In this document: in pieces, positions 2,226 to 63,592 of the stretch
Layout: the number at the start of each line of letters is the position of its first letter
Numbering within the stretch: the stretch's first letter is position 1
Assembly (NCBI GenBank): GCA_041650835.1
Contig: JBAZKL010000001.1
Location: forward strand, 171,931 to 235,930
DNA: 64,000 nucleotides
Direction: 5' to 3'
Origin: Candidatus Omnitrophota bacterium
Lineage (GTDB): Bacteria; Omnitrophota; Gorgyraeia; Gygaellales; Profunditerraquicolaceae
The notes under the pieces: model-generated
What the model was told of the DNA's origin: nothing
What the model saw: only the letters and a program-made list of their open reading frames with translations
Databases searched by the model: none
Made by a program: the position numbers and the translations under genes

Positions 2226-2440
2226 CCATCGTGTATTGAACCGGACCCGCCGATGCTGTATCCTTTACGCGGCCCTCTCCCTCCTGAGAACCCTGCTTTG
2301 TAAATTTAGATTGGAACTCGGGTACGAATATTATGGCAGATTGGTTCTATGCTACAATACAAACTGACAAAAGTCAAAATAATTCAGTTGCGCCGACAGT
2401 ATCCCCTCATAATAACCGCGGGCCCGCATGACGAACAGGC

Positions 2441-4791: not shown

Positions 4792-4792
4792 G

Positions 4793-7470: not shown

Positions 7471-7519
7471 GATCGATCACCCCGCACGGTTTTAGCTTCA
7501 ACCAAAATTCATAGTATCC

Positions 7520-8506: not shown

Positions 8507-8518
8507 ATTTTACGTCTT

Positions 8519-17076: not shown

Positions 17077-17082
17077 ATACAG

Positions 17083-26917: not shown

Positions 26918-27635
26918 ATTTATTTATGGTTGAAATAAACGCCCCTTCAAGGGTTTGCGCGGAAAATTCTTTTTTGATCGCGTACGGGGATTCGCAGCGA
27001 AGCAGCTTCCCTTTATGCATAAGGCCTATGCGCTTACACCGTTCCGCTTCATCCAGATAAGCGGTCGAAAAGAATATCGTTACTTTCTCTTTTAACAGTT
27101 CGTAGAGGATGTTCCAAAAGTCCCTGCGGGATACCGGGTCTACCCCGTTTGTCGGCTCATCGAGGAAAAGGATCTTAGGCGTATGGATAAGCGCGCAGGC
27201 AAGGCCTAACTTTTGCTTCATCCCCCCGGACAGGTTACCGGCGAGCCTGTTTTGGAAAGGAAGCAGACGCGTAAAATCCAACAGCCGTTTTATTCGCGCG
27301 GGCCGCTGGCTTAAAGGCGTCATATAAACATCGGCATAAAAATTAATGTTCTCCATGACCGTAAGGTCTTCATACAGCCCAAAACGCTGCGGCATATACG
27401 CGATCATTTCTTTAAGCTTCTCGGAATCCTTTACGATATGGCACCCCGCGACCCACGCTTCACCGGAAGAAGGCTCAAGTATCCCCGTCAAGAGCCGCAT
27501 GACAGTGCTTTTACCGGCGCCGTCAGGGCCCACCAGGCCGAAGATCTCGCCCTCCGCGACATCGAGATCGAGATCGTCAACCGCGCGAGTCTTACCAAAG
27601 TCTCTGCGTAAACTGATCGTCTTTATAATTGACAT
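26904..27635 (-). CDS. ABC transporter ATP-binding protein (first YbhF-like half)
   Basis: GPDGAGKST, LSGGMKQKL, ILFLDEPTNGVD. Confidence 0.85.
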   Translation of the reverse strand: MSIIKTISLRRDFGKTRAVDDLDLDVAEGEIFGLVGPDGAGKSTVMRLLTGILEPSSGEAWVAGCHIVKDSEKLKEMIAYMPQRFGLYEDLTVMENINFYADVYMTPLSQRPARIKRLLDFTRLLPFQNRLAGNLSGGMKQKLGLACALIHTPKILFLDEPTNGVDPVSRRDFWNILYELLKEKVTIFFSTAYLDEAERCKRIGLMHKGKLLRCESPYAIKKEFSAQTLEGAFISTINKYDHQ

Positions 27636-27636
27636 A

Positions 27637-28473
27637 CTATTGTGCCGTTATAAAAGCGTCTGCCGGCATGCCCGGCTTAAGTTCAAGATCCGCGTTGTCA
27701 ACCGCGATCTTGATCCTATACACCAGTTTTACCCGTTCCTCTTTGGTCTGGATCTGTTTAGGCGTGAATTCTGCTTCCTGCGAAATAAATGAGATCCGGC
27801 CTTTGTAGGTTTTACCCGGATAGGTATCGGTCCTGATACCGGCATCCTGATTCAATTTAACTTTCCCCAGGTCCGTTTCATTAACATACGCGGTAAGCCA
27901 GATATTTTTCAGGTCAGCAACCGTAAAAATAGTCGCTCCCTCCGGGACAACTTCTCCCGCTTCTGCGCTTTTGGTAAGGATAAAGCCGTCAATGGGCGAA
28001 GTTAATTCCGCGAAGCCAAGCCGCGTAACCGCCAGCTCCAGCGTTGCGCGCAGGGCATCAAGATTTGCTTGCGCGCTATCGGCATTCGTTTTAGCGGCAT
28101 CCCGCTTTTGAGCGGAGATCGCGCCTGCCTGAAAAAGATTTTCCGACCTGCCATAATCGTCTTTAGCCCTTTCATAAATAAATTCAGCGGACCTCAAAGA
28201 CGCTTCCGCCTCATTTCTGATTTTCTCAAGTTCATCGATCTCAAGCCTTGCGACCGCCGCGCCCGCCTTGACCATTTCACCTTCATCGGTTAAGAGCTCC
28301 CTGATCTTGCCTGGGGCCCTAAAGGCAAGGCGAACGCCAGTTGTTTCAATATTCCCGGAAACATCGAGTGTTTTATGATTTAAATCTTTTCCCCTCCCTG
28401 CGTACCATACCGAGACACTCGCGATCAAAGCTATCGCTACAACAGGTATAATAATCCTAATTGGTTTTTTCAT
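27637..28473 (-). CDS. HlyD-family membrane fusion protein (YbhG-like)
   Basis: N-terminal TM, coiled-coil region, beta-barrel/lipoyl-like segments. Directly upstream of the ABC ATPases. Confidence 0.8.
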   Translation of the reverse strand: MKKPIRIIIPVVAIALIASVSVWYAGRGKDLNHKTLDVSGNIETTGVRLAFRAPGKIRELLTDEGEMVKAGAAVARLEIDELEKIRNEAEASLRSAEFIYERAKDDYGRSENLFQAGAISAQKRDAAKTNADSAQANLDALRATLELAVTRLGFAELTSPIDGFILTKSAEAGEVVPEGATIFTVADLKNIWLTAYVNETDLGKVKLNQDAGIRTDTYPGKTYKGRISFISQEAEFTPKQIQTKEERVKLVYRIKIAVDNADLELKPGMPADAFITAQ

Positions 28474-29821
28474 TACGGGCCTCCCTTATGAAACTTTGCC
28501 CCATGGTCCGGTCCAAATAAATCTCCGCCATGAGATAATCGTAAATGCCTTCCGACAAGTTTTTCTCAACCTGGCTTAATGAAACCTGCGCGTCCATAAC
28601 ATCCAGGTTAGTCCCCTCGCCGTTATCATATCTGACTCCGGCGATCTTCAAAGCTTCCCTGGCTTCCTCTATGCCGTCTTTTTGCGAATCAATAACAGAC
28701 CGCGCTTTTTGCAGCTCAAGACAGGCCTTCCTGATATCCACCGCGACCTTATCCCCCAGATCCTCTTTTTGTAATTTTGCCTGCGCGTAACGCGCCTTAG
28801 CCTCGTCGACTTTTGCCTTCGTTGAAAACCCGTCGAAAATAGGGATACGCACGCTGACCCCCGCCTGCCAATTACTATGCCGGCTGTTAATCATGTCCCC
28901 GGTATCGTTGGACCTGTACTGGGACCCAAGTTGAAGATTTATCTGCGGCTTACTGCCTGCCTTAGCCATTTCTATCGACCATTTATTTATATCGACGCCC
29001 AGAGCCATGAGCGTCATTTCAGGTTGCTCCAGGTATGCGAGCTTCAAGAATTCGCTTTCTTTAATTTCTATCGGGCTATATATAAACCGGTCTTTTAACC
29101 TGATCGGATCCTGCATTTTAAGGCCGAGGAATCTTTTTAATTCCGCCTCGATCAGATCTACGGCATTCTTTGCCTTGATGAGCTCCGGACCCAGCCTTGA
29201 AACCTGCACGCTGGACTGTAAACGGTCAAAACGGGAAGCGCTGCCCTGCTCATATTTATTCTTCACATTTTCAAAATGAGACCTGGCCTGATCAAGAAGA
29301 TTTTGCGCGATCCTGAGGGTTTCATGAGCCAAAAGCAGCCCGTAATAAAGCCTTTTTACTTCAAATTCAGCATCAAGTTTACGCGCGCGCAGGGTTTCCT
29401 TCTGAATTCTCAATTTAACCTGTTTTTGCTGAAGATTAACGGTATTGGCTCCTCCGTTGTATATAGCCTGCTCCAATTCCAGCCCCACTTTATTATCATT
29501 ACGGTACCCTGAATGAATACCCGGGTCTTTTTTTGTGTTTTGCGTTTGAGGCAGGCTCAAAACGCTGTCAACATGTTCATAGCCGGCATTCGCGCTTAAT
29601 TTTGGCAGGAATTCGCTTCGCGCCCCCAGGAGAGCTGCTTGCGCCGCGCTGATTTCCTGCTCTTCCATCTGAATATCCAAATTATTCTTAAAAGCGGCCC
29701 TTATTGCCTCCTCCAGGGAAAGGTTATACACGGTTGACATTTCTTCCCCCGCGGCAAAACAACAGGAAATACCGCAAATGCAAACTAAAAAGATAACGAA
29801 TAAACTATTGGTTTTTTTCAT
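28457..29821 (-). CDS. TolC-family outer membrane efflux protein
   Basis: Signal peptide, two repeats of long alpha-helical/coiled-coil segments, ~450 aa. Confidence 0.75.
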   Translation of the reverse strand: MKKTNSLFVIFLVCICGISCCFAAGEEMSTVYNLSLEEAIRAAFKNNLDIQMEEQEISAAQAALLGARSEFLPKLSANAGYEHVDSVLSLPQTQNTKKDPGIHSGYRNDNKVGLELEQAIYNGGANTVNLQQKQVKLRIQKETLRARKLDAEFEVKRLYYGLLLAHETLRIAQNLLDQARSHFENVKNKYEQGSASRFDRLQSSVQVSRLGPELIKAKNAVDLIEAELKRFLGLKMQDPIRLKDRFIYSPIEIKESEFLKLAYLEQPEMTLMALGVDINKWSIEMAKAGSKPQINLQLGSQYRSNDTGDMINSRHSNWQAGVSVRIPIFDGFSTKAKVDEAKARYAQAKLQKEDLGDKVAVDIRKACLELQKARSVIDSQKDGIEEAREALKIAGVRYDNGEGTNLDVMDAQVSLSQVEKNLSEGIYDYLMAEIYLDRTMGQSFIREARNEKTN

Positions 29822-29825
29822 GGCG

Positions 29826-30419
29826 TTAAGATCTTGTCCTCATGATCGATTTAAAAATAATTTCTTTCACTGTATCCCTTATTTCATCCGCCGTGTTATC
29901 TTTCACTCCGAAATGCAGTTTGATGATATTGAATTGCATCATCCCCAGAAGGCTCGAAGCTATAATATTCGAACTTACCGATTGGAACTCTGCCGAATGG
30001 ATGCCTTGAATGACAATATGCTCAATGATCCGCTGGTAAGGCAAAATGATAGTTTTAAGCACGTAAGGAAAAGGGACTATCGCGTCCCCTGACTTACCGA
30101 ACAGGATCTGAAAAATATGGACCTTACCCGTGAAATACCGGAAATGGAAATCTATCAGCCTTTCAAGCTTATCCCCGGCAGACTTCGCTTCATTGATCTC
30201 ACTCTTTAACCGGCCCAGGAACTCTTCGGCGTTTTCCTTAATAACCGCCAGAAAAAGTTCATGCTTACCGGAAAAATAATGATAGATGATCCCCTCGGAA
30301 CAATCCGCTTCCCGGGCAATTTCCCTGGTCGTCGCTTGAGTAAACCCCGATCGCGCCGCGATGGTGATCGCGGCTTCGATGATCCTCTTGCGCGTATCGA
30401 TCATTACAGCTTCCTGCAT
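29826..30419 (-). CDS. TetR/AcrR-family transcriptional regulator
   Basis: TRKRIIEAAITIAARSGFTQATTREIAREADCSEGIIYHYF HTH. Start set to ATG 30417..30419, preceded by AGGGGG. The track ORF begins at a GTG inside the operator palindrome. Confidence 0.8.
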   Translation of the reverse strand: MQEAVMIDTRKRIIEAAITIAARSGFTQATTREIAREADCSEGIIYHYFSGKHELFLAVIKENAEEFLGRLKSEINEAKSAGDKLERLIDFHFRYFTGKVHIFQILFGKSGDAIVPFPYVLKTIILPYQRIIEHIVIQGIHSAEFQSVSSNIIASSLLGMMQFNIIKLHFGVKDNTADEIRDTVKEIIFKSIMRTRS

Positions 30420-30430
30420 AGCACCCCCTA

Positions 30431-30450
30431 TTGAGTGAGCACTCACTCAA
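30431..30450. promoter_or_regulatory. Perfect 9-2-9 inverted repeat TTGAGTGAG-CA-CTCACTCAA; candidate TetR operator
   Basis: Read directly from the sequence. Lies ~12 nt upstream of the tetR ATG (30419) at the head of the efflux operon. Confidence 0.45.
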
Positions 30451-47350: not shown

Positions 47351-47369
47351 AATGATTACCATTATTAAT
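47351..47369. promoter_or_regulatory. Fur-box-like palindrome (minus-strand reading TAATAATGGTAATCATT)
   Basis: 14 of 15 match to core of GATAATGATAATCATTATC. Sits immediately downstream of, and overlapping, the -10 of the fur promoter. Confidence 0.5.
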
Positions 47370-47395
47370 ATACATCACCGGACTGTTTTTGTCAA
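47367..47395 (-). promoter_or_regulatory. Sigma70-type promoter of fur: TTGACA-N17-TATATT
   Basis: Minus strand: TTGACA (47390..47395), 17-nt spacer, TATATT (47367..47372). About 35 nt upstream of the fur ATG at 47332. Confidence 0.5.
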
Positions 47396-47415
47396 TCTTT
47401 TTTATTCCAAGACAT

Positions 47416-47457
47416 CCCCTCACGTAAGCATTTGTAAATTCCTTCGCCTCCTGGACT
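47416..47457. repeat. Repeat R2 copy a (between cgs stop and fur promoter)
   Basis: CCCCTCACGTAAGCATTTGTAAATTCCTTCGCCTCCTGGACT, ~80% identical to 56600..56640, with a 22-nt identical core AAATTCCTTCGCCTCCTG. Confidence 0.6.
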
Positions 47458-47525
47458 GGATTTAACGGTAGATAGATATCAAAAGCCCACCTAAAAGAGA
47501 TAGACATCAGGCTTGTTTTCTATGT

Positions 47526-50500
47526 TCATCCGATCTTCACTTCCACTGAATGCTCTACCCGATCATCAATGAGCTGTACCGCCATTTCCTTCTGCGCGAC
47601 ACCATCCACCTCAATAGACGTCAAACGGCCTGACGGTCCCAAACACACAAATGTAATGTGATAAAAAGTCTCCCTGTATCGGTAATGCAGCTTCCAAGAA
47701 GTCCAGCCCGCGGGAAGACACGGCTCGAAATAGATCCTGTCCACTTTCAACCGAATCCCCAGTAAATACTTCACGATAAGCTGATACATCCAACCGGCGG
47801 ATCCGGTGTACCATGTCCATCCACCGCGTCCGGTGAGGCCGGCAGAGGCATACACATCCGCCGCCATCACGAACGGCTCCACCTTGTAAACAGCGCACTT
47901 ATCCGCAGTATCGCAATGACGCACCGGGTTGATCATATCGAACAACTCCCAGGCCCGTTTTTTATCACCCAATACCGCGAACGCGATCGCCGCCCAGATC
48001 GCAGCATGCGTGTACTGTCCCCCGTTCTCCCTCACTCCGGGGACATAGCCTTTGATGTATCCCGGGTTAGGAAAAGCCTTATCAAAAGGAGGATCGAACA
48101 ATCTCACGAGCGCGTGCTTCCTGTCGACAAGCTGCCGGTCCACCTGCTCCATGGCCTTTCGGGCTCTGTCCCCCTGAGCCGCGCCCGAAAGAACCGCCCA
48201 GGATTGCGGGATCGAATCGATCCGGCATTCGCTGTTCAAGGAAGAACCCAAAGGTTCCCCATTGTCAAAATAGGCCCGGCGATACCATTGCCCGTCCCAG
48301 CCATACTTTTCAATATTCTTGGAAAGCTTCTCTGACTCCTCAACACAGAATTCCGAAAAAACCTTATCCTCACGCTGAGCTGCCAGGGCCGCCATCGACT
48401 TAAGGACATCGAAAAGAAAAAAAGCAAGCCAAACGCTTTCGCCTTTTCCTTCGCGCCCGACCAGATTCATCCCGTCATTCCAGTCACCGCTTCCCATAAG
48501 AGGAAGGCCATGAACGCCGAACTGCAAACCTCTTTTCACGCTTAAAACACAATGTTCATAAAGTGTCCCGGTACGAGCGGAGATTCTCGGCATATCGTAG
48601 TAAGATTCTTCTCCCTGCTTGACCAGGGGCCCTTCCAGGAACCCAGCAATTTCATCAAGGATCCCTGTATCCCCGATATTTTCGACATACAGGCAGGTCA
48701 CCAACGGAAGCCATAAATAATCATCCGAACACAGACTACGGACCCCCCGGCCGGAAGGCGGATGCCACCAGTGCTGCACATCTCCCTCCACAAACTGGCG
48801 CGCGGCAAAGCTCAGCAATTGTTCCCGGACCATTTCCGGCTTCGAATGGAGGAGCGCCATCACATCCTGGAGCTGGTCCCGGAAGCCGAAAGCCCCGCCG
48901 GATTGATAAAAACCGCTTCGGCCCATGAGGCGTGAGCTTATGAGCTGATATTGCAGCCATCCGTTGACGAGAAAATTGATCGAGGCATCGGAGGTTTCCA
49001 CATACACAACGCCCAGGGTACGTTTCCAGTATTCCCACACCCTTTCAAGCTCCTGACGTGCCGCCTCGACACCGCCAAAACGCCGGACGAGGTCCCGCGC
49101 CTCGTCCATCGTTCTCCCGGATCCAAAAGTAAAAACTATCTCTTTCTGCTGACCATCCTCTATTTCAAACTTCACCTGCGTGGCAACGCACGGATCAATC
49201 CCCGCGCCCACTTTTCCGGAAAGCCTATCCCTTCGCATCACGGAAGGCGATCGCATAGTGCCGTTCCTTCCGATAAATTCGATCCGGTCCCCGGTCACGA
49301 ATCGCGCCGGTTCGCTCACATCCAAAAAAACAGCGCGGGCAGGGAATTCCTTGTTATAAGGATTACGGGCGAACAGGGCGCCGCTTTTAGGGTCGACCTC
49401 GGTAAGGATATGCATGTGGTATTTATCCCGAGAAGGCCCCATGACCAGCTCATAGTACGACGTCACGGACAGGCGCCTGCGGCGGCCGGAAATATTCCTG
49501 ATCTTCAGGGCAGAGAATTTGACTCGGTCCTCCAGGGAAACGAATACCGTTAACTCCGAAACAATCCCGTTTTCGACATGCTCAAAAACGCTGTACCCGA
49601 ATCCATGGCGCGAGGTGTAACCGGCCTCGCCCCGAGCGGGTAGCGGGGTCGGTGACCAAAATCTCCCGCTCTCCTCATCGCGAATATAGAGCGCCTCTCC
49701 CGAAGCGTCCGTAACAGGATCGTTCTTCCAAGGCGTTAAACGAAATTCATGCGCGTTCTCGCTCCAGGTAAAAGCGCTGCCGCTTTCGGAAACCACCGTG
49801 CCGAAATGCCGGTTCGCCAACACATTTACCCACGGAGCGGGAGTGGTCTTCGAGCGCGAGGTCATGATCACATATTCCCGACCATCCCCGGTAAACCCTC
49901 CCAAGCCATTAAAGTAAACCAGATGAGAGCGCTCTGCGGGATCCCGGGGCTCTTCTTCCGGATCATCTTTCCTGGTGGGAACAAATGGAAGAAAATGCGC
50001 CTTGGGCTGTGTCATATCCGTCAACTGCTCCGTCAGCGTACCCCCGCGGTCAGAAATAATGATCCGCGCGGCCGTTTGCATGAGGATCCGGTCCTCATCC
50101 GACATCTGATCGGCGCGCCTTAAAAAAATACCTCCGTTACGGCCGGCTTGTTCCTTGGTATTGGCAACGATCAACCCGCTGATCCTCTCACCCAGACTAT
50201 CACGATAAATAGAACTATCTTCATTCCATATAAGAAGATCGACCGCCAGTCCTTTCATCTGCCAATAGGCATGGGCTTGCACCATCTGCACGACGAGATC
50301 GATATTGTCCTGATTTTCGATGCGGACGAGGACGATCGGGAGGTCCCCCGAAATACTGTATCCCCAAAGATCGGGCTGGCCCCGGTTATTCCGCCGCAAA
50401 ATACTCGCGCTCGCCCGCCAGGCGGGATTGGCGTACACAATAGCGCTGGTCAGACGGCCGTAGAGCTGAGCGGCCGCCTCCGTCGCATTGATCTGTTGCA

Positions 50501-53500
50501 AAACAACCTGCCCGTGGGTCCACGCCAGGTTAAAAACGCGATCAGCCAGATTCCGGTCCCTGTATTTTTCCATGAGCGCCTGCGCGGCTTCCCGGCTCTC
50601 GCATATTCCGGTTACATAATCGATCACCGCCGATTCATCCGGCTCCAGTTCGATACGGCTGCGTATGGAAACGATTGGATCGAGCACAGAACCTTCGCTG
50701 TCCGAAAGACGTCCGCTCTCCATCATCGCCGCGGGATCAGCCACCGTGCGGCCTCGCCCGATGAATTTGCCGCGGTCAGTTTCATAGGAGGCGCCCTCGA
50801 CCGCATTCCCGTGAACGGCCATCAGATGCAGCATCAAGGGAAACGCTTCTTTGTCGGAGCGCGGCCGCCTCCGGCAAAGGATCGCCTGATGGGACCTGAT
50901 AATTTCGGTCTGGACGAACAGATTACTGAATGTCCGGTGGGCCTGGTCGCTTGCCGGATCATTCAAAACGACTTCCGCGTAACTGGTAATTTCTATGATA
51001 CGCCTATTGCGGGACTGGTTGGTGATCGTCACCCGGCGAAGCTCGATATCATCTTCCGGAGAAACCGCGATCTCGGTATGCGTCTCGATCTGATGGTCCC
51101 TGCGTTTAAATTCTACCCACGCCTGGGAAAACAAGGCTTCATAATACTTAGGGGTTTTTTGTGCCGGCTGATACGCCGAAGACCAGAACTTGCCGGACTC
51201 CGCGTCCCTGAGATAAATAAATGTCCCGTCATTATCCAACGCCGAATCCTCGCGCCAGCGCGTCACGGCGATATTTTGCCAGCGGCTGTACCCGCCTCCG
51301 GCGTTGCTGACCATCACATGGTAGCGGCCGTTGGAAAGCGGATGGACCTCCGGCACCGGAGTTTGAGGGGTTGTGAACACCCTCAAAAGGGTTTCCCTGT
51401 CCCCGAATTTCCTAAGCATTCCGGTTACTTCGAAATCGTAGAGGAAAGGCTCGATGGTGGGAACCCGCTCTTGAAGAAGAAGTTCGGCTGATTTAAACAT
51501 CGGCTCGGCAAGAAAACGTCTTTGCATAGGCCGGTCCAGAAGCACGCAGGCCAGAGATAACAAACTCATACCCTGATGATGCGCCATAAAAGATTTAACG
51601 ATCGCCCGGGTTTCATCCGGAGCAAGGCGCGCGGGCGTGTAATCAATCGCTTCATAGAAGCCATAGAGCCCTCCGGCTCCTTCATCGAATAAGCGTTCGA
51701 GATTTTCGCAAGCCTTCTCCGGCGCCACCATCAAAGCCAGCATCGAAGCATAGGGAGCCACGACAAGATCCTCGGCGAGGCCACGCTTGAAACCCATGTT
51801 CGGAATTCCGAACGACTGATACTGATACACCTTGGTCGCGTCGACCTTATTGTAACCGGACTCTGAGATCCCCCAGGGAATATTGTTCTCGGCCGCATAG
51901 CGGATCTGGCCGCTGACCGCGGCCTTGCAGGTCTCATCCAGCAGGCTCCCCGCATAGGTCGGCATCACCAGGAGCGGCATGAGATACTCAAACATCGACC
52001 CACCCCAGGAAACCAAAACAGGATCTCCTTCGCATTTTGCGATCATCCTGCCGAGCTTGAACCAATGATCCTGGGGCATTCTCCCCTGGGCGATGGCGAC
52101 AAAACTGCAAAACCTGGCCTCGGAGGCCAAAAGGTCATAACAACCCCGCTCCATCTTGTGCTCGCTGACATTGTATCCGATGGAAAGAAGATGGGTATTT
52201 TTATCATAGAGGAATTCATATTCTATACCGGAGATCTCGTTACAGCGCAGCACGATATAATCGATGGCTTTGATCCTTTCGGTGGAACGTGTCCCGGCAT
52301 TCTTGATCGTGTCACGAAGCTTCAAAAACCATTCGCGGACCTTTTTCGACTCATCATCTATGACAGGCATGGCCCTCAGGATCTCCTCGATAAGCGGGAC
52401 CAGCTTCTGCTCAAGCCTCGCTACTTCCCCAAGTATGGGGATCTCGTCCAAATACCGCAAAGCCTCCCTAAGCTGAACAAGCCGTTCCTGCTGATGTTCA
52501 TCCCCCCCATCCCACATCCCCGGTATTTCCGGCGCGAGCAAGATCCAGGGAGCGATAAAAGACATATCCTCCAGAAAGTCGTAATACTGCCGCTCGAAGG
52601 CGCGGGCCCATTTTTTGCTTTGCTCAGAATGCTTATGGTCCAGACCCGTTAAAACCTTTGCAATATCCGTGGAAAGTTGGCGTAAAAACGTATAGATCTC
52701 CGAAAGACGCGCGGGGGACAACGCGCACTTTTCCTGAAATTGCTTGATCTTTTCGGGAAATTGCGCCAGGGATCCGGCGACATCACCCTTGCAGCTTTTC
52801 TCAAGCTCGGCCACACTTTGACGCAGTATCTCCAGGGTATCTCTCAGCCCGTCAAATATCTTCGCGGAGACGATCTTCTGAAGGTTCAATTCCGCAAGCC
52901 CCGAACGCAGGACCAGCAAATGGCCAACCAAGTTCCCGCTATCCACCGATGAGATATACAGAGGCGTCAGGGGCTTAAGCGTCTGGGTGTCGTACCAATT
53001 GTAAAAATGCCCCCTGAATCTTTCCATAAGATTCAGAGTATCAAATGTTTTTTCTGTCCTGTTAAACATCATCCCCATGGAAATATATCCGAAATCATAG
53101 GCGGTCAAATTTGCAAGAAGCGACAGGCCGATATTCGTCGGCGAAGTCCTATGGGCCAGAACGCTGACAGGCTCTTCCTGAAAATTGTCAGGCGGCAGCC
53201 AATGGTCATTCTCGGTAACAAAATTCTCAAAGAACGCCCAGGTCATCCGGGCAAGCTTCCTTAAGAAAAGTACCTGCGACTGGGAAAGCATGATCTTCCG
53301 GGGAGAGGAAGGCTGACTGATCATATACGCCGCCGCGGGAGAAACGAACCACAGGCTTAAAAAGATCAAAGCCAATCCGTCGAAGCGCGGGAATAGCCCC
53401 GAAAAAAGAACCATCAGCACAACGGCGGCAACCGGCGTAAACCACATGCTCCTGTAGTAGCCTGAAATATGGGTCGATGAGGAAACTTCCGATTCAAGGG

Positions 53501-56315
53501 AAGTATTCCAATTCAACAAACGTTTCCTTGACACTGACATTCTCCACAACGTCCGCGCGATCGCGTCCAGGCAATAAAAAGCCTCGTGCAGCAAAAAAAC
53601 AAACGAGAAGAAAAACCGGAGCGTGTTCTTCTTAAGCGAGGATAACACCAATTCAAAATGGGCCTTGAAGGTCAAGTGCTCCGATTTCCTCACCGCCTCC
53701 GCTAAAGACATCGGCACAAGGGGAAAACCAAGCAGAGCGATGACGAAAGCCGACCATATCCAAGAGGGCTGATAAAACATCCAACCTGATAAAAGCAGTA
53801 TCACTGTCGATAAAGGAACGAGGCTGCGCCTCAAGTTATCGGCGATCTTCCATTGGGACAGCCAGGAGATCGGATTCTTGACTTTTGAGCCATTGGCCCC
53901 GGGTACCGAAGAGAACAGCCAGGGGGAGATCTGCCAGTCCCCGCAAACCCAGCGATGCCTGCGCCTTGAGTCATTAAGATACCCCGGAGGATACCCCTCG
54001 TAAAATTGGATATCGGTCACAAGCCCTGACCGGGCGTAACATCCTTCCAAAAGATCATGGCTCAGTATACGATTTTCCGGAAAACGGCCTTCCATGGACC
54101 GTTCGAAGGCAGCCACATCATAAAGCCCTTTCCCGATAAAAGACCCCTCGAAGAAAAAATCCTGGTACACATCGGAGACCGCTTTGGTATAAGGATCAAT
54201 CCCGGTATCGCCTCCGAAGATCCTCACGAACAAAGAAGGATTTTCTCCCGGATAGCTGGATTCTACCCTGGGCTGGAGGATCCCGTAGCCGGAAATAACA
54301 CGTTGTTTTTTTTCATCATAAACCGGCCGGTTAAGGGGATGCGCGATGACCCCCACCAGATCCCGGGCCGCGTTGCGGGACATCCGGGTATCCGCGTCCA
54401 GCGTAATGACATATTTGACCTCATGAAGCCTCTGGAGATTGCCGATAATCACGCTAAAACGGCCCTCGCCTTTTCCGCGAAGGAAAGCGTTCAGATCACC
54501 CAGCTTACCCCGCTTGCGTTCGTACCCCATCCACACCTTTTCTCTTTCATTCCATAGGCGGGGCCTGTGGAAAAGAGAGAAAACTTGATCTTTCTGCCGC
54601 CGGTATTTGTAATTCAACTGCTCGATCCCGTTTATGACCTGCGCCAGAAGCGCTTCATCCTCCGCCATCGTCTCCTGTTGCGCATCGCAAAAATCCGTCA
54701 AAAGCGCGAAATCCGTATTCGCGTCAATATTCGCCAAATACCGGACCTCCAATCCTTCCAGAAGCGAGTCAATTGTCCGCGCGTCTCTGATCATACAGGG
54801 AACCACGGCCAGTGTATGAGCATAGGCGGGAATTCCTTCTGAAAAGTCCATCCGGGGAAGATTTTGGGGCCGCACGAGCATCATGGAAAACCAATTCACC
54901 AGCGAAACTGCCGTCTGGCTTGACGTAAGCATAAGCGATACCCCGAATAAAACAAGCCACGGCCGGCTCAAGATCACCGCCGGCCGCAACCAATACAAAA
55001 CGCCGATGGTAAAAACAAGAGTCACAAAAACAATAGAACCGAAAAATAAAAAAGACGACCAATAAGTTTTTTTTGCCTGCAGATACTGGCTCAGTGGCAA
55101 ACGCAGGCCCAATTCGCGGCAAAAAAACGCCAATCCCCGGTCGAGAAGGTAAAAACCTACATGCGCCGTGACGTGAGCGGGGCCTTTTTCCGTTTTCGCT
55201 TTCTTCGCCAGCAGGATGGCGCGCGCCGCAACCTCTTCCTCCGAGATCCTGCTTCTCAAGGAAAGTTTCTCAATGACATGCCGGTAGCGGTCGCGGGTGG
55301 CGAAAGACATCAGGGGATAATCCCCCGAGGGATCCTGACCTAAAACTTTTTCCATAAAGCTCAGGGCTTCGACAAAATCATGCCAATCGGTACCCCCCAG
55401 AAGACGCAGGCTCCCGATCGTATTCGCGATCGAAACCTGGTCAGCCGCCTGTTTCTGGCCGGTCGCCCGGATCATCCTATCAAGGGTCTCCCCTTGCTCC
55501 GAAAGCTTCTTTTCCAGCCAGGTAAAAGGAAGATTAAGCGCCTGACTCTGGCTATGCAAACGCCGGGTGAATTCCGCGACAAAAACATCGGAAAGCGGAG
55601 GGTTACTCCTGGACATCGCCGCTATTTCAAAGATCACCCCGTCGGAATCTTTGGCTGAGACCTCCAGGATCCGCGTCGCCCAATAATTCGCCTTATCTCT
55701 TTCTGTTTGCGCTACGATCAACCGGGAGGAAACGCGCCTTAAATTCTCAATAAGCGCGAGCCTTAACATGATAGGAATAGCCCAGAGTTCGCCGAGCTTC
55801 AAGTGGCTGACGCTTTGATAGGCAGTGACAAACTCCGTAAGCCCCTGGTTATCCAGCCGTCCGTCGCCGTGAGAAACAAGTTCCATGGCAAGCTCATACA
55901 CGCGAGGATAACCGACAAACGGCCCCGAAGAAAGATGGGGTAATTCACGAATGTAATTCTCCGGAAGATATTTCTGGGCGAGCCGTATCTGCTCCTCAAT
56001 AAGGTAATAGTTATCCAGAAGCCATTCTCCGGCAGGGGAGATCTTTCGTTTGGATTTACCGGTCACATTAAGGAGTTCATGGACCTCGGCAAGGACCTTT
56101 TCATTCTGCTTCAGCCGCAGCAATAGCCTGTTGCGTCCCTTTTTGTAGCTGACCAGGCGGCCATGGGCCAGGCTTTTTGCGTGCGCCTTGAACTGCTCAA
56201 TGTTAAAAAGCTCGGCGCGCAGAGGCTGTTCCTCGGCAATCCTGTTCCTATCCAGAAAATCGCCAAGACGCATTTTAAAAGGCAGCATATAGTCTTGAAA
56301 AGGCTTCTGCGGCAA
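47526..56315 (-). CDS. cgs: Cyclic beta-1,2-glucan synthase (Cgs/NdvB/ChvB-like; GT84 glycosyltransferase + GH94 phosphorylase domains)
   Basis: 2929 aa. N-terminal region, then TM segments, a GT domain (LDADT, ILQPRV), more TM helices, and a C-terminal GH94 cellobiose-phosphorylase-like catalytic domain (FGFRDQLQDVMALL…WYTGSAGW). Size and order match Cgs/NdvB (~2830-2870 aa). Confidence 0.85.
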   Translation of the reverse strand: MPQKPFQDYMLPFKMRLGDFLDRNRIAEEQPLRAELFNIEQFKAHAKSLAHGRLVSYKKGRNRLLLRLKQNEKVLAEVHELLNVTGKSKRKISPAGEWLLDNYYLIEEQIRLAQKYLPENYIRELPHLSSGPFVGYPRVYELAMELVSHGDGRLDNQGLTEFVTAYQSVSHLKLGELWAIPIMLRLALIENLRRVSSRLIVAQTERDKANYWATRILEVSAKDSDGVIFEIAAMSRSNPPLSDVFVAEFTRRLHSQSQALNLPFTWLEKKLSEQGETLDRMIRATGQKQAADQVSIANTIGSLRLLGGTDWHDFVEALSFMEKVLGQDPSGDYPLMSFATRDRYRHVIEKLSLRSRISEEEVAARAILLAKKAKTEKGPAHVTAHVGFYLLDRGLAFFCRELGLRLPLSQYLQAKKTYWSSFLFFGSIVFVTLVFTIGVLYWLRPAVILSRPWLVLFGVSLMLTSSQTAVSLVNWFSMMLVRPQNLPRMDFSEGIPAYAHTLAVVPCMIRDARTIDSLLEGLEVRYLANIDANTDFALLTDFCDAQQETMAEDEALLAQVINGIEQLNYKYRRQKDQVFSLFHRPRLWNEREKVWMGYERKRGKLGDLNAFLRGKGEGRFSVIIGNLQRLHEVKYVITLDADTRMSRNAARDLVGVIAHPLNRPVYDEKKQRVISGYGILQPRVESSYPGENPSLFVRIFGGDTGIDPYTKAVSDVYQDFFFEGSFIGKGLYDVAAFERSMEGRFPENRILSHDLLEGCYARSGLVTDIQFYEGYPPGYLNDSRRRHRWVCGDWQISPWLFSSVPGANGSKVKNPISWLSQWKIADNLRRSLVPLSTVILLLSGWMFYQPSWIWSAFVIALLGFPLVPMSLAEAVRKSEHLTFKAHFELVLSSLKKNTLRFFFSFVFLLHEAFYCLDAIARTLWRMSVSRKRLLNWNTSLESEVSSSTHISGYYRSMWFTPVAAVVLMVLFSGLFPRFDGLALIFLSLWFVSPAAAYMISQPSSPRKIMLSQSQVLFLRKLARMTWAFFENFVTENDHWLPPDNFQEEPVSVLAHRTSPTNIGLSLLANLTAYDFGYISMGMMFNRTEKTFDTLNLMERFRGHFYNWYDTQTLKPLTPLYISSVDSGNLVGHLLVLRSGLAELNLQKIVSAKIFDGLRDTLEILRQSVAELEKSCKGDVAGSLAQFPEKIKQFQEKCALSPARLSEIYTFLRQLSTDIAKVLTGLDHKHSEQSKKWARAFERQYYDFLEDMSFIAPWILLAPEIPGMWDGGDEHQQERLVQLREALRYLDEIPILGEVARLEQKLVPLIEEILRAMPVIDDESKKVREWFLKLRDTIKNAGTRSTERIKAIDYIVLRCNEISGIEYEFLYDKNTHLLSIGYNVSEHKMERGCYDLLASEARFCSFVAIAQGRMPQDHWFKLGRMIAKCEGDPVLVSWGGSMFEYLMPLLVMPTYAGSLLDETCKAAVSGQIRYAAENNIPWGISESGYNKVDATKVYQYQSFGIPNMGFKRGLAEDLVVAPYASMLALMVAPEKACENLERLFDEGAGGLYGFYEAIDYTPARLAPDETRAIVKSFMAHHQGMSLLSLACVLLDRPMQRRFLAEPMFKSAELLLQERVPTIEPFLYDFEVTGMLRKFGDRETLLRVFTTPQTPVPEVHPLSNGRYHVMVSNAGGGYSRWQNIAVTRWREDSALDNDGTFIYLRDAESGKFWSSAYQPAQKTPKYYEALFSQAWVEFKRRDHQIETHTEIAVSPEDDIELRRVTITNQSRNRRIIEITSYAEVVLNDPASDQAHRTFSNLFVQTEIIRSHQAILCRRRPRSDKEAFPLMLHLMAVHGNAVEGASYETDRGKFIGRGRTVADPAAMMESGRLSDSEGSVLDPIVSIRSRIELEPDESAVIDYVTGICESREAAQALMEKYRDRNLADRVFNLAWTHGQVVLQQINATEAAAQLYGRLTSAIVYANPAWRASASILRRNNRGQPDLWGYSISGDLPIVLVRIENQDNIDLVVQMVQAHAYWQMKGLAVDLLIWNEDSSIYRDSLGERISGLIVANTKEQAGRNGGIFLRRADQMSDEDRILMQTAARIIISDRGGTLTEQLTDMTQPKAHFLPFVPTRKDDPEEEPRDPAERSHLVYFNGLGGFTGDGREYVIMTSRSKTTPAPWVNVLANRHFGTVVSESGSAFTWSENAHEFRLTPWKNDPVTDASGEALYIRDEESGRFWSPTPLPARGEAGYTSRHGFGYSVFEHVENGIVSELTVFVSLEDRVKFSALKIRNISGRRRRLSVTSYYELVMGPSRDKYHMHILTEVDPKSGALFARNPYNKEFPARAVFLDVSEPARFVTGDRIEFIGRNGTMRSPSVMRRDRLSGKVGAGIDPCVATQVKFEIEDGQQKEIVFTFGSGRTMDEARDLVRRFGGVEAARQELERVWEYWKRTLGVVYVETSDASINFLVNGWLQYQLISSRLMGRSGFYQSGGAFGFRDQLQDVMALLHSKPEMVREQLLSFAARQFVEGDVQHWWHPPSGRGVRSLCSDDYLWLPLVTCLYVENIGDTGILDEIAGFLEGPLVKQGEESYYDMPRISARTGTLYEHCVLSVKRGLQFGVHGLPLMGSGDWNDGMNLVGREGKGESVWLAFFLFDVLKSMAALAAQREDKVFSEFCVEESEKLSKNIEKYGWDGQWYRRAYFDNGEPLGSSLNSECRIDSIPQSWAVLSGAAQGDRARKAMEQVDRQLVDRKHALVRLFDPPFDKAFPNPGYIKGYVPGVRENGGQYTHAAIWAAIAFAVLGDKKRAWELFDMINPVRHCDTADKCAVYKVEPFVMAADVYASAGLTGRGGWTWYTGSAGWMYQLIVKYLLGIRLKVDRIYFEPCLPAGWTSWKLHYRYRETFYHITFVCLGPSGRLTSIEVDGVAQKEMAVQLIDDRVEHSVEVKIG

Positions 56316-56599
56316 AGCGGGCTCCTGTTCCTATTCGGTAAGCGAGACGTTGGAAAGATAAAATTTTTAGGATGATGAATGCTTCAAAGATTATTATACA
56401 CCTCAAAGCGAAATTTCTGCTATACAAAATCTCCGAGCTGATCTTATATACCGGCCCCCTCACTCTTACGAACATCGCTACTTCAAAAGGCCCATAACCG
56501 CTGGCGCGACCATAGACCTCCCTTGGTTATATTATACCAAAAGAGTTACCTAATTACTGAGCATTAACAATGCTTCTCATCCTAAGCAGTCTATATTTG

Positions 56600-56640
56600 C
56601 CCCTCGCCTAAACACTTGCAAATTCCTTCGCCTCCTGACT
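56600..56640. repeat. Repeat R2 copy b (far upstream of cgs start, just after the stop of 56653..57591)
   Basis: CCCCTCGCCTAAACACTTGCAAATTCCTTCGCCTCCTGACT. Confidence 0.6.
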
Positions 56641-56652
56641 AAGTCAGTCGGC

Positions 56653-58392: not shown

Positions 58393-58770
58393 CTAAAATA
58401 TCCATCCTATCAAACCGCCAACGAGCCTAAAGGGCAAAGCAATAACCCAGCCAACCGCATGCAAGGTAGCCCCTAAGACACTCTGATGCCCGGCTTTCGC
58501 CTCAGTACTTGTAACAGTAGTCGTCTCCTCACTTTTCTGAGTAACCAAATTATTTTGTTGATCATTCGAAGTGGCCACGCTCGCGGTTTTCATAAGATAT
58601 CCCTTATTACCCTCATTGGCGGGATACGTTTCTGTTGTTTTTGTTGTCGTTGTTTTCGTTGTCTTATGAGAACTAGCACACCCGACACCCATAGCAACAA
58701 CAATAAAGAATGCGAGGTATATACAAACACTGCTCTTATTTACCGATATTTTCAATATGCCCTCCTGCAT
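58393..58770 (-). CDS. Putative small lipoprotein with Thr/Lys-rich linker and C-terminal amphipathic/hydrophobic tail
   Basis: Possible lipobox AMGVGC, KTTKTTTTKTTET low-complexity run. Its 5' end overlaps the entericidin-like ORF in another frame, so the start is uncertain. Confidence 0.3.
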   Translation of the reverse strand: MQEGILKISVNKSSVCIYLAFFIVVAMGVGCASSHKTTKTTTTKTTETYPANEGNKGYLMKTASVATSNDQQNNLVTQKSEETTTVTSTEAKAGHQSVLGATLHAVGWVIALPFRLVGGLIGWIF

Positions 58771-58867
58771 TCTTTAGATCTGTTCCCGCGCCTCTGGCCG
58801 CGTTACATCCTGCAAGTGAAGCCATTACTATCACGGCTAACAAGCTCAATAAAGCAAGTTTTCTCAT
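58736..58867 (-). CDS. Entericidin (EcnA/EcnB)-like 43-aa lipoprotein, not in the supplied ORF track
   Basis: Minus-strand ATG at 58865..58867 preceded by AGGAGA. MRKLALLSLLAVIVMASLAGCNAARGAGTDLKNAGGHIENIGK* has a lipobox LAGC followed by the CN..RG.G.D....GG.I entericidin signature. Confidence 0.5.
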   Translation of the reverse strand: MRKLALLSLLAVIVMASLAGCNAARGAGTDLKNAGGHIENIGK

Positions 58868-60332: not shown

Positions 60333-60971
60333 CTACTCGTTTGTTTTAGGATGCGCATCAAGCGTTGCCAGTTCCTCTGATATCTGACTGCTTAATGACG
60401 CGCAAACCGCGCTGAGCGTTTTGGCTAAACCGGAGTAATCCTGCGGAATGATCGGCTGCCGGAATTCCGCTCTTTTCATGATCAGAGTTTTCGAATTTTC
60501 GGTATCGATCACCAGCCATTGAGCAGCAAAAAACATGCCCTCATCAAATTCGCTATCCAATTCAACAATTTCTACGACCACCTGGTATTTGACCGGGACA
60601 GATGAATTCCAGGGATATAAGGAAAACTTTGCATCCGGGAGCATGACGGTGAGATATTCTCGGATCAGGCGCGCCACCCCAAGGTCAAGAGATTCCCCCC
60701 AACGGTCGAATTGAGCAAAGGTAATCATCTTTTCTTTGCTCTGGGTCACCATTTGCGGCCTATCCAGGTATTCCGGGATTTTAACCGGCCCAACGCCAAT
60801 AAACACATCAGAAGCAATATTTATTTTTTTACTGACCTTGTTTTCATTTACGGCAGAAAGCAGGTAAAACCGCGGCGCCGGGCTTTTTTGTACCGATATG
60901 CAACCGCTCAAGACCAAAACAACACACGCCACGCTAATAACCATACAGGAATCAACCAAAATTTGTCTCAT
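60333..60971 (-). CDS. ABC-transport auxiliary lipoprotein (PqiC/YmbA-like)
   Basis: Lipobox LSGC, ~210 aa, immediately downstream of the MCE gene (1-nt gap), the canonical pqiC position. Confidence 0.6.
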   Translation of the reverse strand: MRQILVDSCMVISVACVVLVLSGCISVQKSPAPRFYLLSAVNENKVSKKINIASDVFIGVGPVKIPEYLDRPQMVTQSKEKMITFAQFDRWGESLDLGVARLIREYLTVMLPDAKFSLYPWNSSVPVKYQVVVEIVELDSEFDEGMFFAAQWLVIDTENSKTLIMKRAEFRQPIIPQDYSGLAKTLSAVCASLSSQISEELATLDAHPKTNE

Positions 60972-60972
60972 C

Positions 60973-61707
60973 TTATTCCCCCTTAATAACAGGTTTTCCT
61001 TTTAAGATCGCTTCAGGATGCTGCTCAAGATATTCAGTAAGCAAGCGGATCGATCGCATTGCCTGTTTGGTCTCCTGAAGGGTATTACGCATCTCGTAAA
61101 GGCTTCTTTCTAAGTCGTTGGAATTGACCAATCGATCAATCCCTTTGGCGGTAGCAGCGAGGTTCTTCGAGATCTCTTTAATGGGTATTTCATTCATAAG
61201 CTCAAAAATATCGGGTGAGATAGGAAGCGTGGGCAGCTCCGGATATTGATTCAGGATGCCGCGGAACGCTACAGGCTTATCCGGATAAAAGTCAAATGAG
61301 ATCATAAGCTGGCCGGTCAAAAAACTCTGAACTTCGAGCTTCCCCCGCAAACCAAGCTCGATCATCTTCTTGGGGCCGTCTTTTTCCCCAAAGCTCGGGG
61401 CACCCTTAATACGGCCCTCTTCGATCTCGACAATAACAGGAAGCATGATAGTCCCGGCTTTTGAGTCATAGATCAGGCTGATATCTTTAATTATTCCTAT
61501 ACTGACACCCCTGAACATTACCGGTGCCCCTACTGAAAGGCCTTTAACGGAACCATCAAAATACAGGACAAATTTATTAGTCCGCTTAAAAAGCACCCCC
61601 GAACCAAAAACCGCTATTCCTATTATTAACAATACTAAGGCCCCTACGACAAATAAACCGATCACTGTTTTGTTTACTTTTCTACTCATGTGTTTGCTCC
61701 TGGCCAT
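60973..61707 (-). CDS. MCE-family protein (MlaD-like)
   Basis: N-terminal TM (VIGLFVVGALVLLIIGIAVF), then an MCE domain (…GLSVGAPVMFRGVSIGIIKDISL…). Confidence 0.75.
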   Translation of the reverse strand: MARSKHMSRKVNKTVIGLFVVGALVLLIIGIAVFGSGVLFKRTNKFVLYFDGSVKGLSVGAPVMFRGVSIGIIKDISLIYDSKAGTIMLPVIVEIEEGRIKGAPSFGEKDGPKKMIELGLRGKLEVQSFLTGQLMISFDFYPDKPVAFRGILNQYPELPTLPISPDIFELMNEIPIKEISKNLAATAKGIDRLVNSNDLERSLYEMRNTLQETKQAMRSIRLLTEYLEQHPEAILKGKPVIKGE

Positions 61708-62461
61708 CTGCCGCTCTGGTTAAAAACTGGATGACTCTGGGGTCCTTAGAATTATCCAACAAGGACCGGGGGTTGCCCGTGGCGATCATCGTCTTACTTG
61801 CTGCGTCAAGAAACACGGAATTATTACCCACGGCAAAAATACTGGCGAGTTCATGCGTTATTACGACTATGGTAGCTTTTAACCCGTCTCTTAACTCAAG
61901 GATCAGGTCATCAAGCTTGCGCGCGTGTATCGGGTCAAGCCCGGCCGAAGGTTCATCAAAGAAAATAATACCCGGATCAAGGGCGATTGCCCGCGCAAGA
62001 CTGGCACGTTTGCGCATCCCGCCGCTTATTCCCGAAGGAAAATAATCCCCGAATCCGTCCAATCCCACGAGTGAAAGTTTTAATGTTACTATTTCCTGTA
62101 TCTGCCGGCCGGATAACTTTGTATACATCCGTAAAGGAAGCGCGACATTTTCCCCCACCGTCAAAGAGCTCCACAACGCTCCGCCTTGAAAAAGGACCCC
62201 AAACCCCCGCATAAGAGCGTGCTGGGCTGTTTCATCTTCATCCCAATAGCTCTTTCCGTCGTATAAGACCTTGCCCTGAGACGGCGCCTTAAGGCCGATC
62301 AAACTCTTAAGCAACGTGCTCTTGCCGCAACCATTGACCCCCATGACAATAAAAACGTCGCCTTTATTCACACTGAAATTAAGATTGCGCAGCACCGGGG
62401 AATCGTTATACCCCAGATCAAGGTCCCGCACCTCAAGAACCGGCTGAATGTTTTGGCCCAT
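61682..62461 (-). CDS. ABC transporter ATP-binding protein (MlaF-like)
   Basis: GVNGCGKSTLLK, SGGMRKRASLARA, IIFFDEPSAGLDP. Confidence 0.85.
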   Translation of the reverse strand: MGQNIQPVLEVRDLDLGYNDSPVLRNLNFSVNKGDVFIVMGVNGCGKSTLLKSLIGLKAPSQGKVLYDGKSYWDEDETAQHALMRGFGVLFQGGALWSSLTVGENVALPLRMYTKLSGRQIQEIVTLKLSLVGLDGFGDYFPSGISGGMRKRASLARAIALDPGIIFFDEPSAGLDPIHARKLDDLILELRDGLKATIVVITHELASIFAVGNNSVFLDAASKTMIATGNPRSLLDNSKDPRVIQFLTRAADGQEQTHE

Positions 62462-62464
62462 GCG

Positions 62465-63592
62465 TTATACTCCCAATATCTGGCAAATAAATGTGATCGC
62501 CGCAGTCGCAATTACAATTCCGGTTATCCCGGTAACAACGGCCGAAGTAGTTGCGAATCCCACACCGGCGGCGTTTCTTTCGCACTTAATACCGCGCAGG
62601 CAACCCGCGACTGCAATGATCACACCGAACACCAAACTATGAATTAACCCGATCCACACGTAACTAAGCTTTACCGCGGCTTGCGTATGGTTCAAATATT
62701 CTATCCCATTAAGATGAAGCATCCCCGCGCTGATCACAAAACCGCCTACTATGCCCATAAGGTCCGCGTAAATAACCAGGACCGGCATCATAAGTACTAC
62801 TGCCAGAAGGCGCGGCATGACCAAAAACTCGACAGGGGAAATCCCTAATGTTTTAAGCGCGTCGATCTCCTCGCTTGTCTGCATCATCCCCAGCTCAGCC
62901 GCAAAAGATGCTCCGACGCGGCCGGACATAATAATACCCGTCATTACCGCCGACAATACGCGCACCATGGCGATCCCCACTATATCGGCAATAAAGATCT
63001 GGGCCCCGAACATCTTAAGCTGGATCGAGCCGACAAAAGCAAGGATCATGCCTACTAATAAACTTATCAAAGAAACAAGCAGAAACGAATCGACTCCGCA
63101 TCTTTTTACGAGAAGGTAAAAATCATCCCGGCGAAAATACGCTTTACCGGTAAGCAGGCGGCCGAAAGAAACAGCGATATCCCCTAAAAACTCAAGCTCA
63201 GAGCTCAAGCTTTCGCTGATTTGCAAAGCTTTTGCCCCGGCCCGCTCAAGGAACGGCTCGCGCGCTTTTTGAGCGGTAACTCCCTTAACACGCACCTTTA
63301 AGGCCAGCACAAGCAGTTTCTGCGCTTCTTGCGGCAAGCCTTCACGAGCGACTTGAATATTCCTTTGTTCACACTCCTTGACCAGCTTCAACAAAAAAGC
63401 AATAAGCCCACTGTCCCACTGTAACTCTTCTGAAACAGTAAAATTGACCTGCGCGATATCCGGATGGCTAACCAGTTGCGAGGCAACCTCAAGCACCGGC
63501 ACAACGCCCGCGGAAATCCGCCAATCTTTGCTTAACGCGATAAGGAGTGTCTTAGGTTTTGAATAATCGAGGGAAAGCTTTTCCTGAATCAT
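62465..63592 (-). CDS. MlaE-like ABC permease fused to an N-terminal STAS (MlaB-like) domain
   Basis: C-terminal ~260 aa with 5-6 TM helices typical of MlaE/YrbE. N-terminal ~110 aa soluble domain with STAS-like alternating beta/alpha pattern. Confidence 0.7.
   Translation of the reverse strand: MIQEKLSLDYSKPKTLLIALSKDWRISAGVVPVLEVASQLVSHPDIAQVNFTVSEELQWDSGLIAFLLKLVKECEQRNIQVAREGLPQEAQKLLVLALKVRVKGVTAQKAREPFLERAGAKALQISESLSSELEFLGDIAVSFGRLLTGKAYFRRDDFYLLVKRCGVDSFLLVSLISLLVGMILAFVGSIQLKMFGAQIFIADIVGIAMVRVLSAVMTGIIMSGRVGASFAAELGMMQTSEEIDALKTLGISPVEFLVMPRLLAVVLMMPVLVIYADLMGIVGGFVISAGMLHLNGIEYLNHTQAAVKLSYVWIGLIHSLVFGVIIAVAGCLRGIKCERNAAGVGFATTSAVVTGITGIVIATAAITFICQILGV

Follow-up and report, generated by a model that had tools for sequence, protein, structure and literature searches.

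The stretch examined here, a 64,000-nucleotide window from a genome of Candidatus Omnitrophota (contig JBAZKL010000001.1), carries on its minus strand one very large open reading frame (ORF), hereafter cgs, which runs uninterrupted from position 56315 to 47526 and, in the ORF list and its translation, comprises 2929 codons and a stop, with TTG as the start codon. The coding sequence (47526-56315) is borne out by the alignment to the structure 8RF0 and by an identical database protein, P0001, both discussed below. An AGGAG ribosome-binding site lies 6 nt 5' of the TTG. Some database relatives are annotated from an ATG located 14 codons inside, giving proteins of 2915 aa; in five Omnitrophota relatives, however, the changes in the 14 codons between the TTG and this first downstream ATG (M15) are codon-like, being synonymous or conservative, and reading from the equivalent TTG gives 2929 aa in all five of the closest Omnitrophota loci, so the TTG is likely the real start and a better call than the ATG. 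The gene is preceded by a gap of 337 nt (56316-56652) and followed, 21 nt after its stop, by a terminator-like hairpin with a T-rich tail (47485-47505, minus strand), which is a pattern match only from a consensus scan.

Judged from its sequence, the 2929-aa protein is very probably a full-length orthologue of Cgs/NdvB/ChvB, the inner-membrane, single-polypeptide assembly line for cyclic beta-1,2-glucan. An earlier note on this DNA had proposed such a homologue from size and domain order, and the cryo-EM structure of the Agrobacterium tumefaciens enzyme (8RF0) agrees with it, aligning end to end with a HMMER score of 1981 bits over residues 65 to 2876. The alignment is collinear for about 2700 residues and falls into two stretches, residues 65-1238 and 1363-2876, with identities of 42% in the glycosyltransferase (GT) and transmembrane (TM) region (536 aligned residues), 45% in the C-terminal part of the cyclization (CY) domain and 45% in the last 600 residues, which belong to the phosphorylase (GP) half. 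The two proteins are also alike in length (2929 aa here, 2818 residues in the solved chain), in domain order and in having two plus four TM helices. Both parts whose lack the earlier note had linked to a different GH94 multidomain enzyme are present, namely the GT84 domain, 42% identical to that of A. tumefaciens, and the central cyclase, whose best match is the GH189 domain of the CGS of Thermoanaerobacter italicus (TiCGS; 8WY1, E 4.5e-131).

The domain order is an N-terminal domain, two TM helices, GT84, four TM helices, a GH189 cyclase and a GH94 phosphorylase. Pfam, hydropathy and the 8RF0 alignment thus agree with the arrangement that the earlier note had read from the letters, an N-terminal region followed by a GT domain between TM bundles and a C-terminal GH94 domain. 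The N-terminal scaffold domain (residues 1-416; 55068-56315, all domains being on the minus strand) aligns to its A. tumefaciens counterpart from residue 65 onward and precedes TM helices 1-2 (residues ~417-465; 54921-55067), which were placed by hydropathy and by alignment to the A. tumefaciens TM region. GT84 (residues ~466-850; 53766-54920) is defined by alignment to 8RF9/8RF0, by motif positions and by a weak Pfam GT2_3 match (635-864), and TM helices 3-6 (residues ~851-1001; 53313-53765) align to A. tumefaciens residues 830-978. A simple Kyte-Doolittle hydropathy scan predicts six TM helices, two before and four after the GT (segments 417-465, 851-876, 901-920 and 956-1001), in agreement with the six-helix anchor described for A. 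tumefaciens Cgs (PMC10901819). The CY domain (residues ~1010-1625; 51441-53288), supported by 8WY1, 8RF0 and the Pfam family 'Glycoamylase' (PF10091, 1396-1589), is the central (alpha/alpha)6 domain of the protein and has a divergent helical insert at ~1150-1360. The remaining GP half (residues ~1626-2929; 47529-51440) contains two PF06165 matches, corresponding to the GH94 supersandwich, and the catalytic PF17167 (2429-2853), and aligns to residues 2193-2790 of 8RF0. The Rossmann-fold-like insert between GP1 and GP2 (A. tumefaciens 1847-2012) appears to be retained, being spanned by a HMMER alignment that is unbroken from A. tumefaciens residue 1264 to 2790.

With a single exception, A. tumefaciens R776, all published catalytic or essential residues are kept, the roles of the A. 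tumefaciens residues being taken from PMC10901819 and those of the TiCGS cyclase from PMC10834661. In GT84, alignment places the UDP-coordinating D527 of A. tumefaciens at D541, R586 at R600, the DxD pair D624/D626 at D640/D642, the autoglucosylated Y694 of the IF1-homology loop at Y709, the catalytic base D739 at D754, and the RW motif R773-W774 at R788-W789. Y709 stands in GIDPYT, where A. tumefaciens has GIDPYV, is invariant in an alignment of eight sequences (A1) and is the putative primer site. In the cyclase, A. tumefaciens S1101/D1104 align with S1122/D1125 and the acid/base E1300, equivalent to TiCGS E1356, with E1399, while the pKa-tuning E1400, the nucleophile E1442 and H1536/H1537 of TiCGS correspond to E1443, E1485 and H1579/H1580. 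All five key TiCGS cyclase residues lie in identical local motifs (YDLLASEAR, MFEY, PWGISESG and FMAHHQGM). In GH94, the second active-site aspartate, A. tumefaciens D2393, corresponds to D2480 in FGFRDQLQD, and the catalytic D2528 to D2614 in GDWNDGMN. The likeness to A. tumefaciens Cgs therefore extends to the GT motifs, the tyrosine primer site, the cyclase residues and the GH94 catalytic aspartate. The two enzymes differ in that identity is limited to 42-45%, a cysteine takes the place of R776, and the four-helix CY insert (~1150-1360) is unaligned past residue 1238; moreover, no chvA/ndvA gene adjoins cgs here, and the host is an uncultured Omnitrophota rather than a host-associated alphaproteobacterium. 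The isolated TiCGS CY domain, the founding member of GH189, shares E1356, E1400, E1442, H1536 and H1537 with the protein described here; it was characterised only as an isolated domain, and in sequence the linker or insert that separates the two aligned blocks bears no relation to the one here.

Purifying selection acts on the gene over its entire length, the GH94 half included. By the Nei-Gojobori method, against five relatives at synonymous divergences (dS) of 0.47-0.67, the ratio of nonsynonymous to synonymous divergence (dN/dS) is 0.11-0.17 for the complete gene and 0.07-0.21 for each of its whole domains, with 0.11-0.20 for the N-terminal domain and 0.09-0.21 for the Rossmann-like GH94 insert segment. 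The least constrained segment is the helical insert of the CY domain (0.20-0.34).

Database names imply quite a different function, in which the protein would degrade beta-glucans rather than make a cyclic one. The identical protein and many relatives are called 'glucoamylase family protein', 'cellobiose phosphorylase' or 'GH36-type hydrolase', the strongest Pfam matches are GH94 and 'Glycoamylase', and the best stand-alone PDB matches of the C-terminus are cellobiose phosphorylases. Such names, however, cover the C-terminal two thirds only. The N-terminal 1000 residues form a membrane-anchored GT84 in which the DxD, the catalytic aspartate, the RW motif and the tyrosine primer site are intact, and the loss of GT motifs that would favour a catabolic enzyme is not seen. 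In addition, the whole protein is collinear with an experimentally proven Cgs, and several Omnitrophota relatives already bear the name cyclic beta 1-2 glucan synthetase. Comparison with the soluble enzymes leads in the same direction. Cellobiose phosphorylase (3QDE) and 1,2-beta-oligoglucan phosphorylase (5H3Z) share with the C-terminal 790 residues the supersandwich, the (alpha/alpha)6 fold and the catalytic aspartate, but they are catabolic proteins of ~800-1100 aa without GT84, TM helices or GH189, and they score 308 and 28 bits, respectively, vs 1981 for the Cgs match. The beta-1,2-glucanases of GH144 and GH162 (CpSGL, TfSGL) share the (alpha/alpha)6 fold family of the CY domain and the position of the general-acid glutamate, PF10091 covering both; these are inverting hydrolases, whereas the CY domain here has the retaining nucleophile Glu1485 and the histidine pair typical of GH189. 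We thus consider a catabolic role very improbable.

Several points nevertheless weigh against the assignment as a cyclic glucan synthase. The Pfam GT2 match is sub-threshold (21.9 vs 27 bits), and the GT84 assignment is therefore based on the alignment to A. tumefaciens Cgs. That the Omnitrophota enzymes are active is something we infer from their sequences. The window holds no exporter of the NdvA/ChvA/Cgt type, none of its ORFs of at least 500 aa being an ABC exporter, and export, too, is what we infer. The osmotic-stress genes near cgs are not shared by its closest relatives, seven Omnitrophota loci presenting seven unrelated contexts. Finally, A. tumefaciens R776 is replaced by Cys791 (codon TGC, 53943-53945, minus strand), and substitution of R776 greatly lowered activity in A. 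tumefaciens (PMC10901819). Together with R586, R776 forms a pair of arginines near the putative UDP-glucose/gating site, of which the first is kept here as R600 and the second is Cys791. Across 118 relatives, this position is Arg in 109 and Cys in eight, namely the window protein and seven close Omnitrophota, all of them in a clade that is otherwise strongly constrained. Because the same cysteine occurs in those seven other relatives, Cys791 is a genuine natural variant and not an error.

By analogy with A. tumefaciens Cgs, GT84 would glucosylate Tyr709 on the IF1-homology loop, producing a short covalent primer, and would lengthen it, with UDP-glucose as donor, to a linear beta-1,2 chain. The GH94 half would offer a glucan-binding surface and trim the chain by phosphorolysis, with Asp2614 as the catalytic residue, and GH189, acting by retaining transglycosylation with Glu1485 as nucleophile and Glu1399 as acid/base, would release a ring of ~17-25 glucoses and regenerate the primer. 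Architecture, residue conservation and purifying selection are what the sequence itself shows. The product, its ring size, its passage into the periplasm through an exporter whose gene would lie elsewhere, and a role in hypo-osmotic or envelope adaptation are proposed by analogy. The TM domain of Cgs makes no export channel (PMC10901819), so a separate exporter would be needed for the glucan to reach the periplasm. The window codes for OEP, BON, Mla-like and AsmA-like proteins and for lipoproteins, and these outer-membrane and periplasmic genes indicate that the host is diderm and that a periplasm exists to receive the glucan.

The absence of an ndvA/chvA-type exporter, which the earlier note had remarked on for the window, is the rule next to cgs rather than a peculiarity of this locus. 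Across 83 loci (the window and 82 others, flanks of up to 10 kb being included on either side), a regular-expression search for proteins with fused transmembrane and nucleotide-binding domains, followed by NCBIfam scoring, found no NdvA-type exporter adjoining cgs. The sole candidate, a fused ABC protein at locus L076, is MsbA-like by NCBIfam and scores under the ChvA cut-off. Since exporter adjacency is missing in all 83 loci, its absence here carries no signal, and the traits that had been flagged as unusual, that is, the size, the lone gene and the lack of an adjacent exporter, are typical of the family. The ABC systems that the window does encode belong to the Mla, ABC-2/HlyD/OEP and Znu types. 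The second of these is a TetR-regulated efflux operon at 23704-30446, composed of an OEP, a HlyD, two ABC and two ABC-2 permease genes, which is not of the NdvA type.

A related possibility is that the enzyme, though a Cgs-like synthase, departs from the rhizobial model in its product or in where that product goes, for instance a linear or differently sized glucan, a cytoplasmic solute or store, or a glucan that leaves by a non-NdvA route. The missing exporter, both in the window and beside cgs at every one of the 83 loci, is compatible with this, as are the MacB-type tripartite pumps that adjoin cgs at L002 and L087, both Omnitrophota loci, the cysteine near the proposed UDP-glucose/gating site, the low constraint on the helical CY insert, and the occurrence of Cgs in T. 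italicus, the source of the crystallised CY domain. Against it, every cyclase catalytic residue is conserved, as is the GH94 aspartate for length control, and the isolated CY domain of TiCGS by itself makes cyclic glucan (PMC10834661). On balance, we regard such a departure as unlikely and retain the synthesis of a periplasmic cyclic glucan as the preferred reading. Non-adjacency of the exporter gene says little in this respect, as we take it that in Brucella, too, the exporter gene lies away from cgs.

At the two loci with tripartite pumps (L002 16715-25247 and L087 742-4982), a MacB-type efflux set consisting of an OEP, a membrane-fusion protein and an ABC-MacB_PCD-FtsX protein is the immediate neighbour of cgs. 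After the L002 set come MatE, a PilZ protein and a stand-alone GH94 phosphorylase of 778 aa. These sets could serve in glucan export or recycling.

The region upstream of cgs, which had been described as unusually long, does measure 337 nt, but only ~120 nt of it are conserved and the other ~215 nt are lineage-specific spacer. From -1 to -120 (56316-56435, minus strand), the sequence is 72-80% identical in four of five Omnitrophota relatives in spite of differing upstream genes; the fifth, L087, matches at 42 of 60 positions in -61 to -120 and lacks 37 nt of the leader. Beyond -120, identity drops to a background of 35-45%. The conserved block consists of the box GGTGTATAAT with a TATAAT (56393-56398), an A/T-rich leader of ~70 nt, and the AGGAG (56322-56326) with the TTG start, and its identity exceeds that at the synonymous sites of cgs (proportion of synonymous differences, pS, 0.43). 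Stop codons interrupt every frame of the leader, and the deletion in L087, at 37 nt, would shift any frame, so the block is best taken as promoter and leader rather than coding sequence. It accompanies cgs in six unrelated contexts (window, L003, L084, L085/L088, L086 and L087) and reads as a constrained promoter with a probably unstructured leader. No conserved leader fold was obtained with RNAalifold (-2 kcal/mol); two of the five sequences in that alignment were offset by 42 nt, and the part shared by all gave none either. The conserved TATAAT escaped the sigma-70 consensus scan because no -35 match accompanies it. An RNA element or riboswitch was also considered; an Rfam scan of positions 40000-64000 at E<=1 returned only a sub-threshold nuoG match inside the ORF, and this reading was given up.

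A further feature of the locus is a direct repeat of 38 nt on the minus strand, with one copy just after the DUF748 gene upstream of cgs (56600-56637) and the other past the cgs stop, ahead of the fur promoter (47416-47453). The repeat search reported the pair as family D1, at 87% identity. The copies match at 33 of 38 positions and share an exact 18-nt core, CAGGAGGCGAAGGAATTT, which occurs twice in the 64 kb vs 0.06 expected. Six other loci do not have this repeat flanking cgs, and a scan of the metagenome with the 18-nt core gave 57 matches, all attributable to chance (flanks agreeing at no more than 17 of 43 positions), with no empty site and no second copy. The repeat could be the scar of an insertion, or else a shared operator.

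Divergence is discordant between cgs and a second region on the same two contigs. The cgs genes of the window and L088 (47526-56315 vs 531-9320) encode proteins that are 86% identical, at a dS of 0.65, while their Mla-like four-gene operons (60333-63592 vs 14424-17723) show only 42-68% identity with saturated synonymous sites (pS 0.69-0.755). Together with contexts that all differ, a raised G+C content at third codon positions (GC3) in cgs (0.62 vs 0.42-0.58 in its immediate neighbours) and a transposase adjoining cgs in L002, this discordance suggests that cgs may have moved horizontally with its promoter among Omnitrophota lineages after their divergence. Alternatively, the two Mla operons could be paralogues, or codon bias could have lowered dS in cgs.

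The same signs might be taken to mean that the gene is a decaying or inactive remnant of horizontal transfer, without a current function, given its GC3, a context that differs in every relative, the 38-nt repeat that flanks it and the loss of R776. Yet the frame is unbroken over 8.8 kb, every domain has a dN/dS of 0.07-0.2, promoter, ribosome-binding site and start are conserved, and all catalytic residues are present, which makes a remnant extremely improbable. A more speculative proposal, to which we assign a low probability, is that cgs is a self-contained mobile unit, made up of the 120-nt promoter and leader and the 8.8-kb ORF and enclosed here by the 38-nt repeat, that has recently spread in Omnitrophota. 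In this proposal, the glucan of these ultra-small, possibly host- or prey-dependent cells would serve cell-cell or host interaction beyond osmoprotection, and its exit might proceed via MacB-type pumps instead of NdvA.

Upstream of cgs, the window encodes a DUF748/AsmA-like protein, two unknown proteins, an entericidin-like lipoprotein of 43 aa, a triple-BON protein, a YeaQ/Transgly_assoc protein and the four-gene Mla-like ABC system, and the downstream side has Fur, a DUF5320 protein, two NifX-like proteins, a methyltransferase, two MinD-Fer4 proteins, NifU and the Znu genes. The bracketing that the earlier note had described, with BON, YeaQ, entericidin-like and Mla genes on one side and a Fur/metal module on the other, is thus present, but it is not conserved even in the closest relatives. 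A phmmer comparison of 19 window neighbours with the ORFs of the 82 other loci recovered only BON proteins (6 loci) and one Mla set. BON-domain ORFs, which are OsmY-like, lie within 10 kb of cgs in six of the 82 loci, from several phyla (L010, 6958-7395; L071, 19123-19443; L029; L062; L006; L015), and directly adjoin it in two. This recurrence fits, if only weakly, a role in osmotic adaptation. The entericidin-like lipoprotein (58736-58867, minus strand; MRKLALLSLLAVIVMASLAGCNAARGAGTDLKNAGGHIENIGK) carries a lipobox, and towards its C-terminus it resembles Escherichia coli entericidins, with no Pfam match at E<=0.01. Its gene forms, with those for the triple-BON and YeaQ proteins, an OsmY/Ecn/YeaQ-like osmotic-stress set.

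The protein itself has already been deposited, since P0001, 100% identical, is found in NCBI/ENA under the name 'glucoamylase family protein'. It comes from a Candidatus Omnitrophota metagenome-assembled genome, in which its contig (ENA ERZ27247363 k141_1924541) measures 868 kb. Omnitrophota relatives are 75-88% identical and carry varying names, some of them 'cyclic beta 1-2 glucan synthetase', and outside the phylum identities are ~66% in Elusimicrobia, ~62% in Spirochaetia and ~57% in NC10. A scan with one genome per species listed at least 600 matches, and the best 80 of these loci, nearly all of them full length, came from Elusimicrobiota, Planctomycetota, Verrucomicrobiota, Acidobacteriota, Bacteroidota, Chloroflexota, Nitrospirota, Gemmatimonadota, Myxococcota, Desulfobacterota, Pseudomonas, Xanthomonas and others. 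With the Cgs-specific N-terminal 1010 residues, 3938 clusters (50% identity) were recovered at E<=1e-30. Cgs had been called best known from Rhizobiales and Brucella, and it is indeed well studied there, but it is not special to them. That fame reflects where the family was studied. By these matches, the family is common and very broadly spread, and the copy described here is an ordinary member of it.

The locus consequently adds little on the enzyme, as its sequence, architecture and key residues are all those of characterised Cgs proteins. Its modest value is ecological, in that what appears to be the complete machinery for making cyclic beta-1,2-glucans is present in uncultured Omnitrophota as well as in many other phyla. 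Such glucans are usually treated as symbiosis or virulence factors of alphaproteobacteria. The machinery is concealed by database names like 'glucoamylase family protein' or 'cellobiose phosphorylase'. In three Omnitrophota papers the word glucan appears only in unrelated contexts. The replacement of arginine by cysteine at the R776 position and the apparent mobility of cgs with its own promoter are small leads.

Two other parts of the window deserve mention. Positions 189-23616 hold a large surface-polysaccharide cluster with at least five radical-SAM enzymes and a GC content of 0.50-0.535, above that of the region around cgs. The cluster also encodes three GT2 proteins, two PMT_2-type membrane glycosyltransferases, a Wzx-like flippase, a DegT aminotransferase, a sulfatase and a TPP enzyme. 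Downstream of cgs, fur is preceded by a strong promoter close to consensus, TTGACA-17-TATATT, at 47395-47367 (region 47363-47400). After it comes AATAATGGTAATCATTTCC, which resembles a Fur box and suggests autoregulation of fur.

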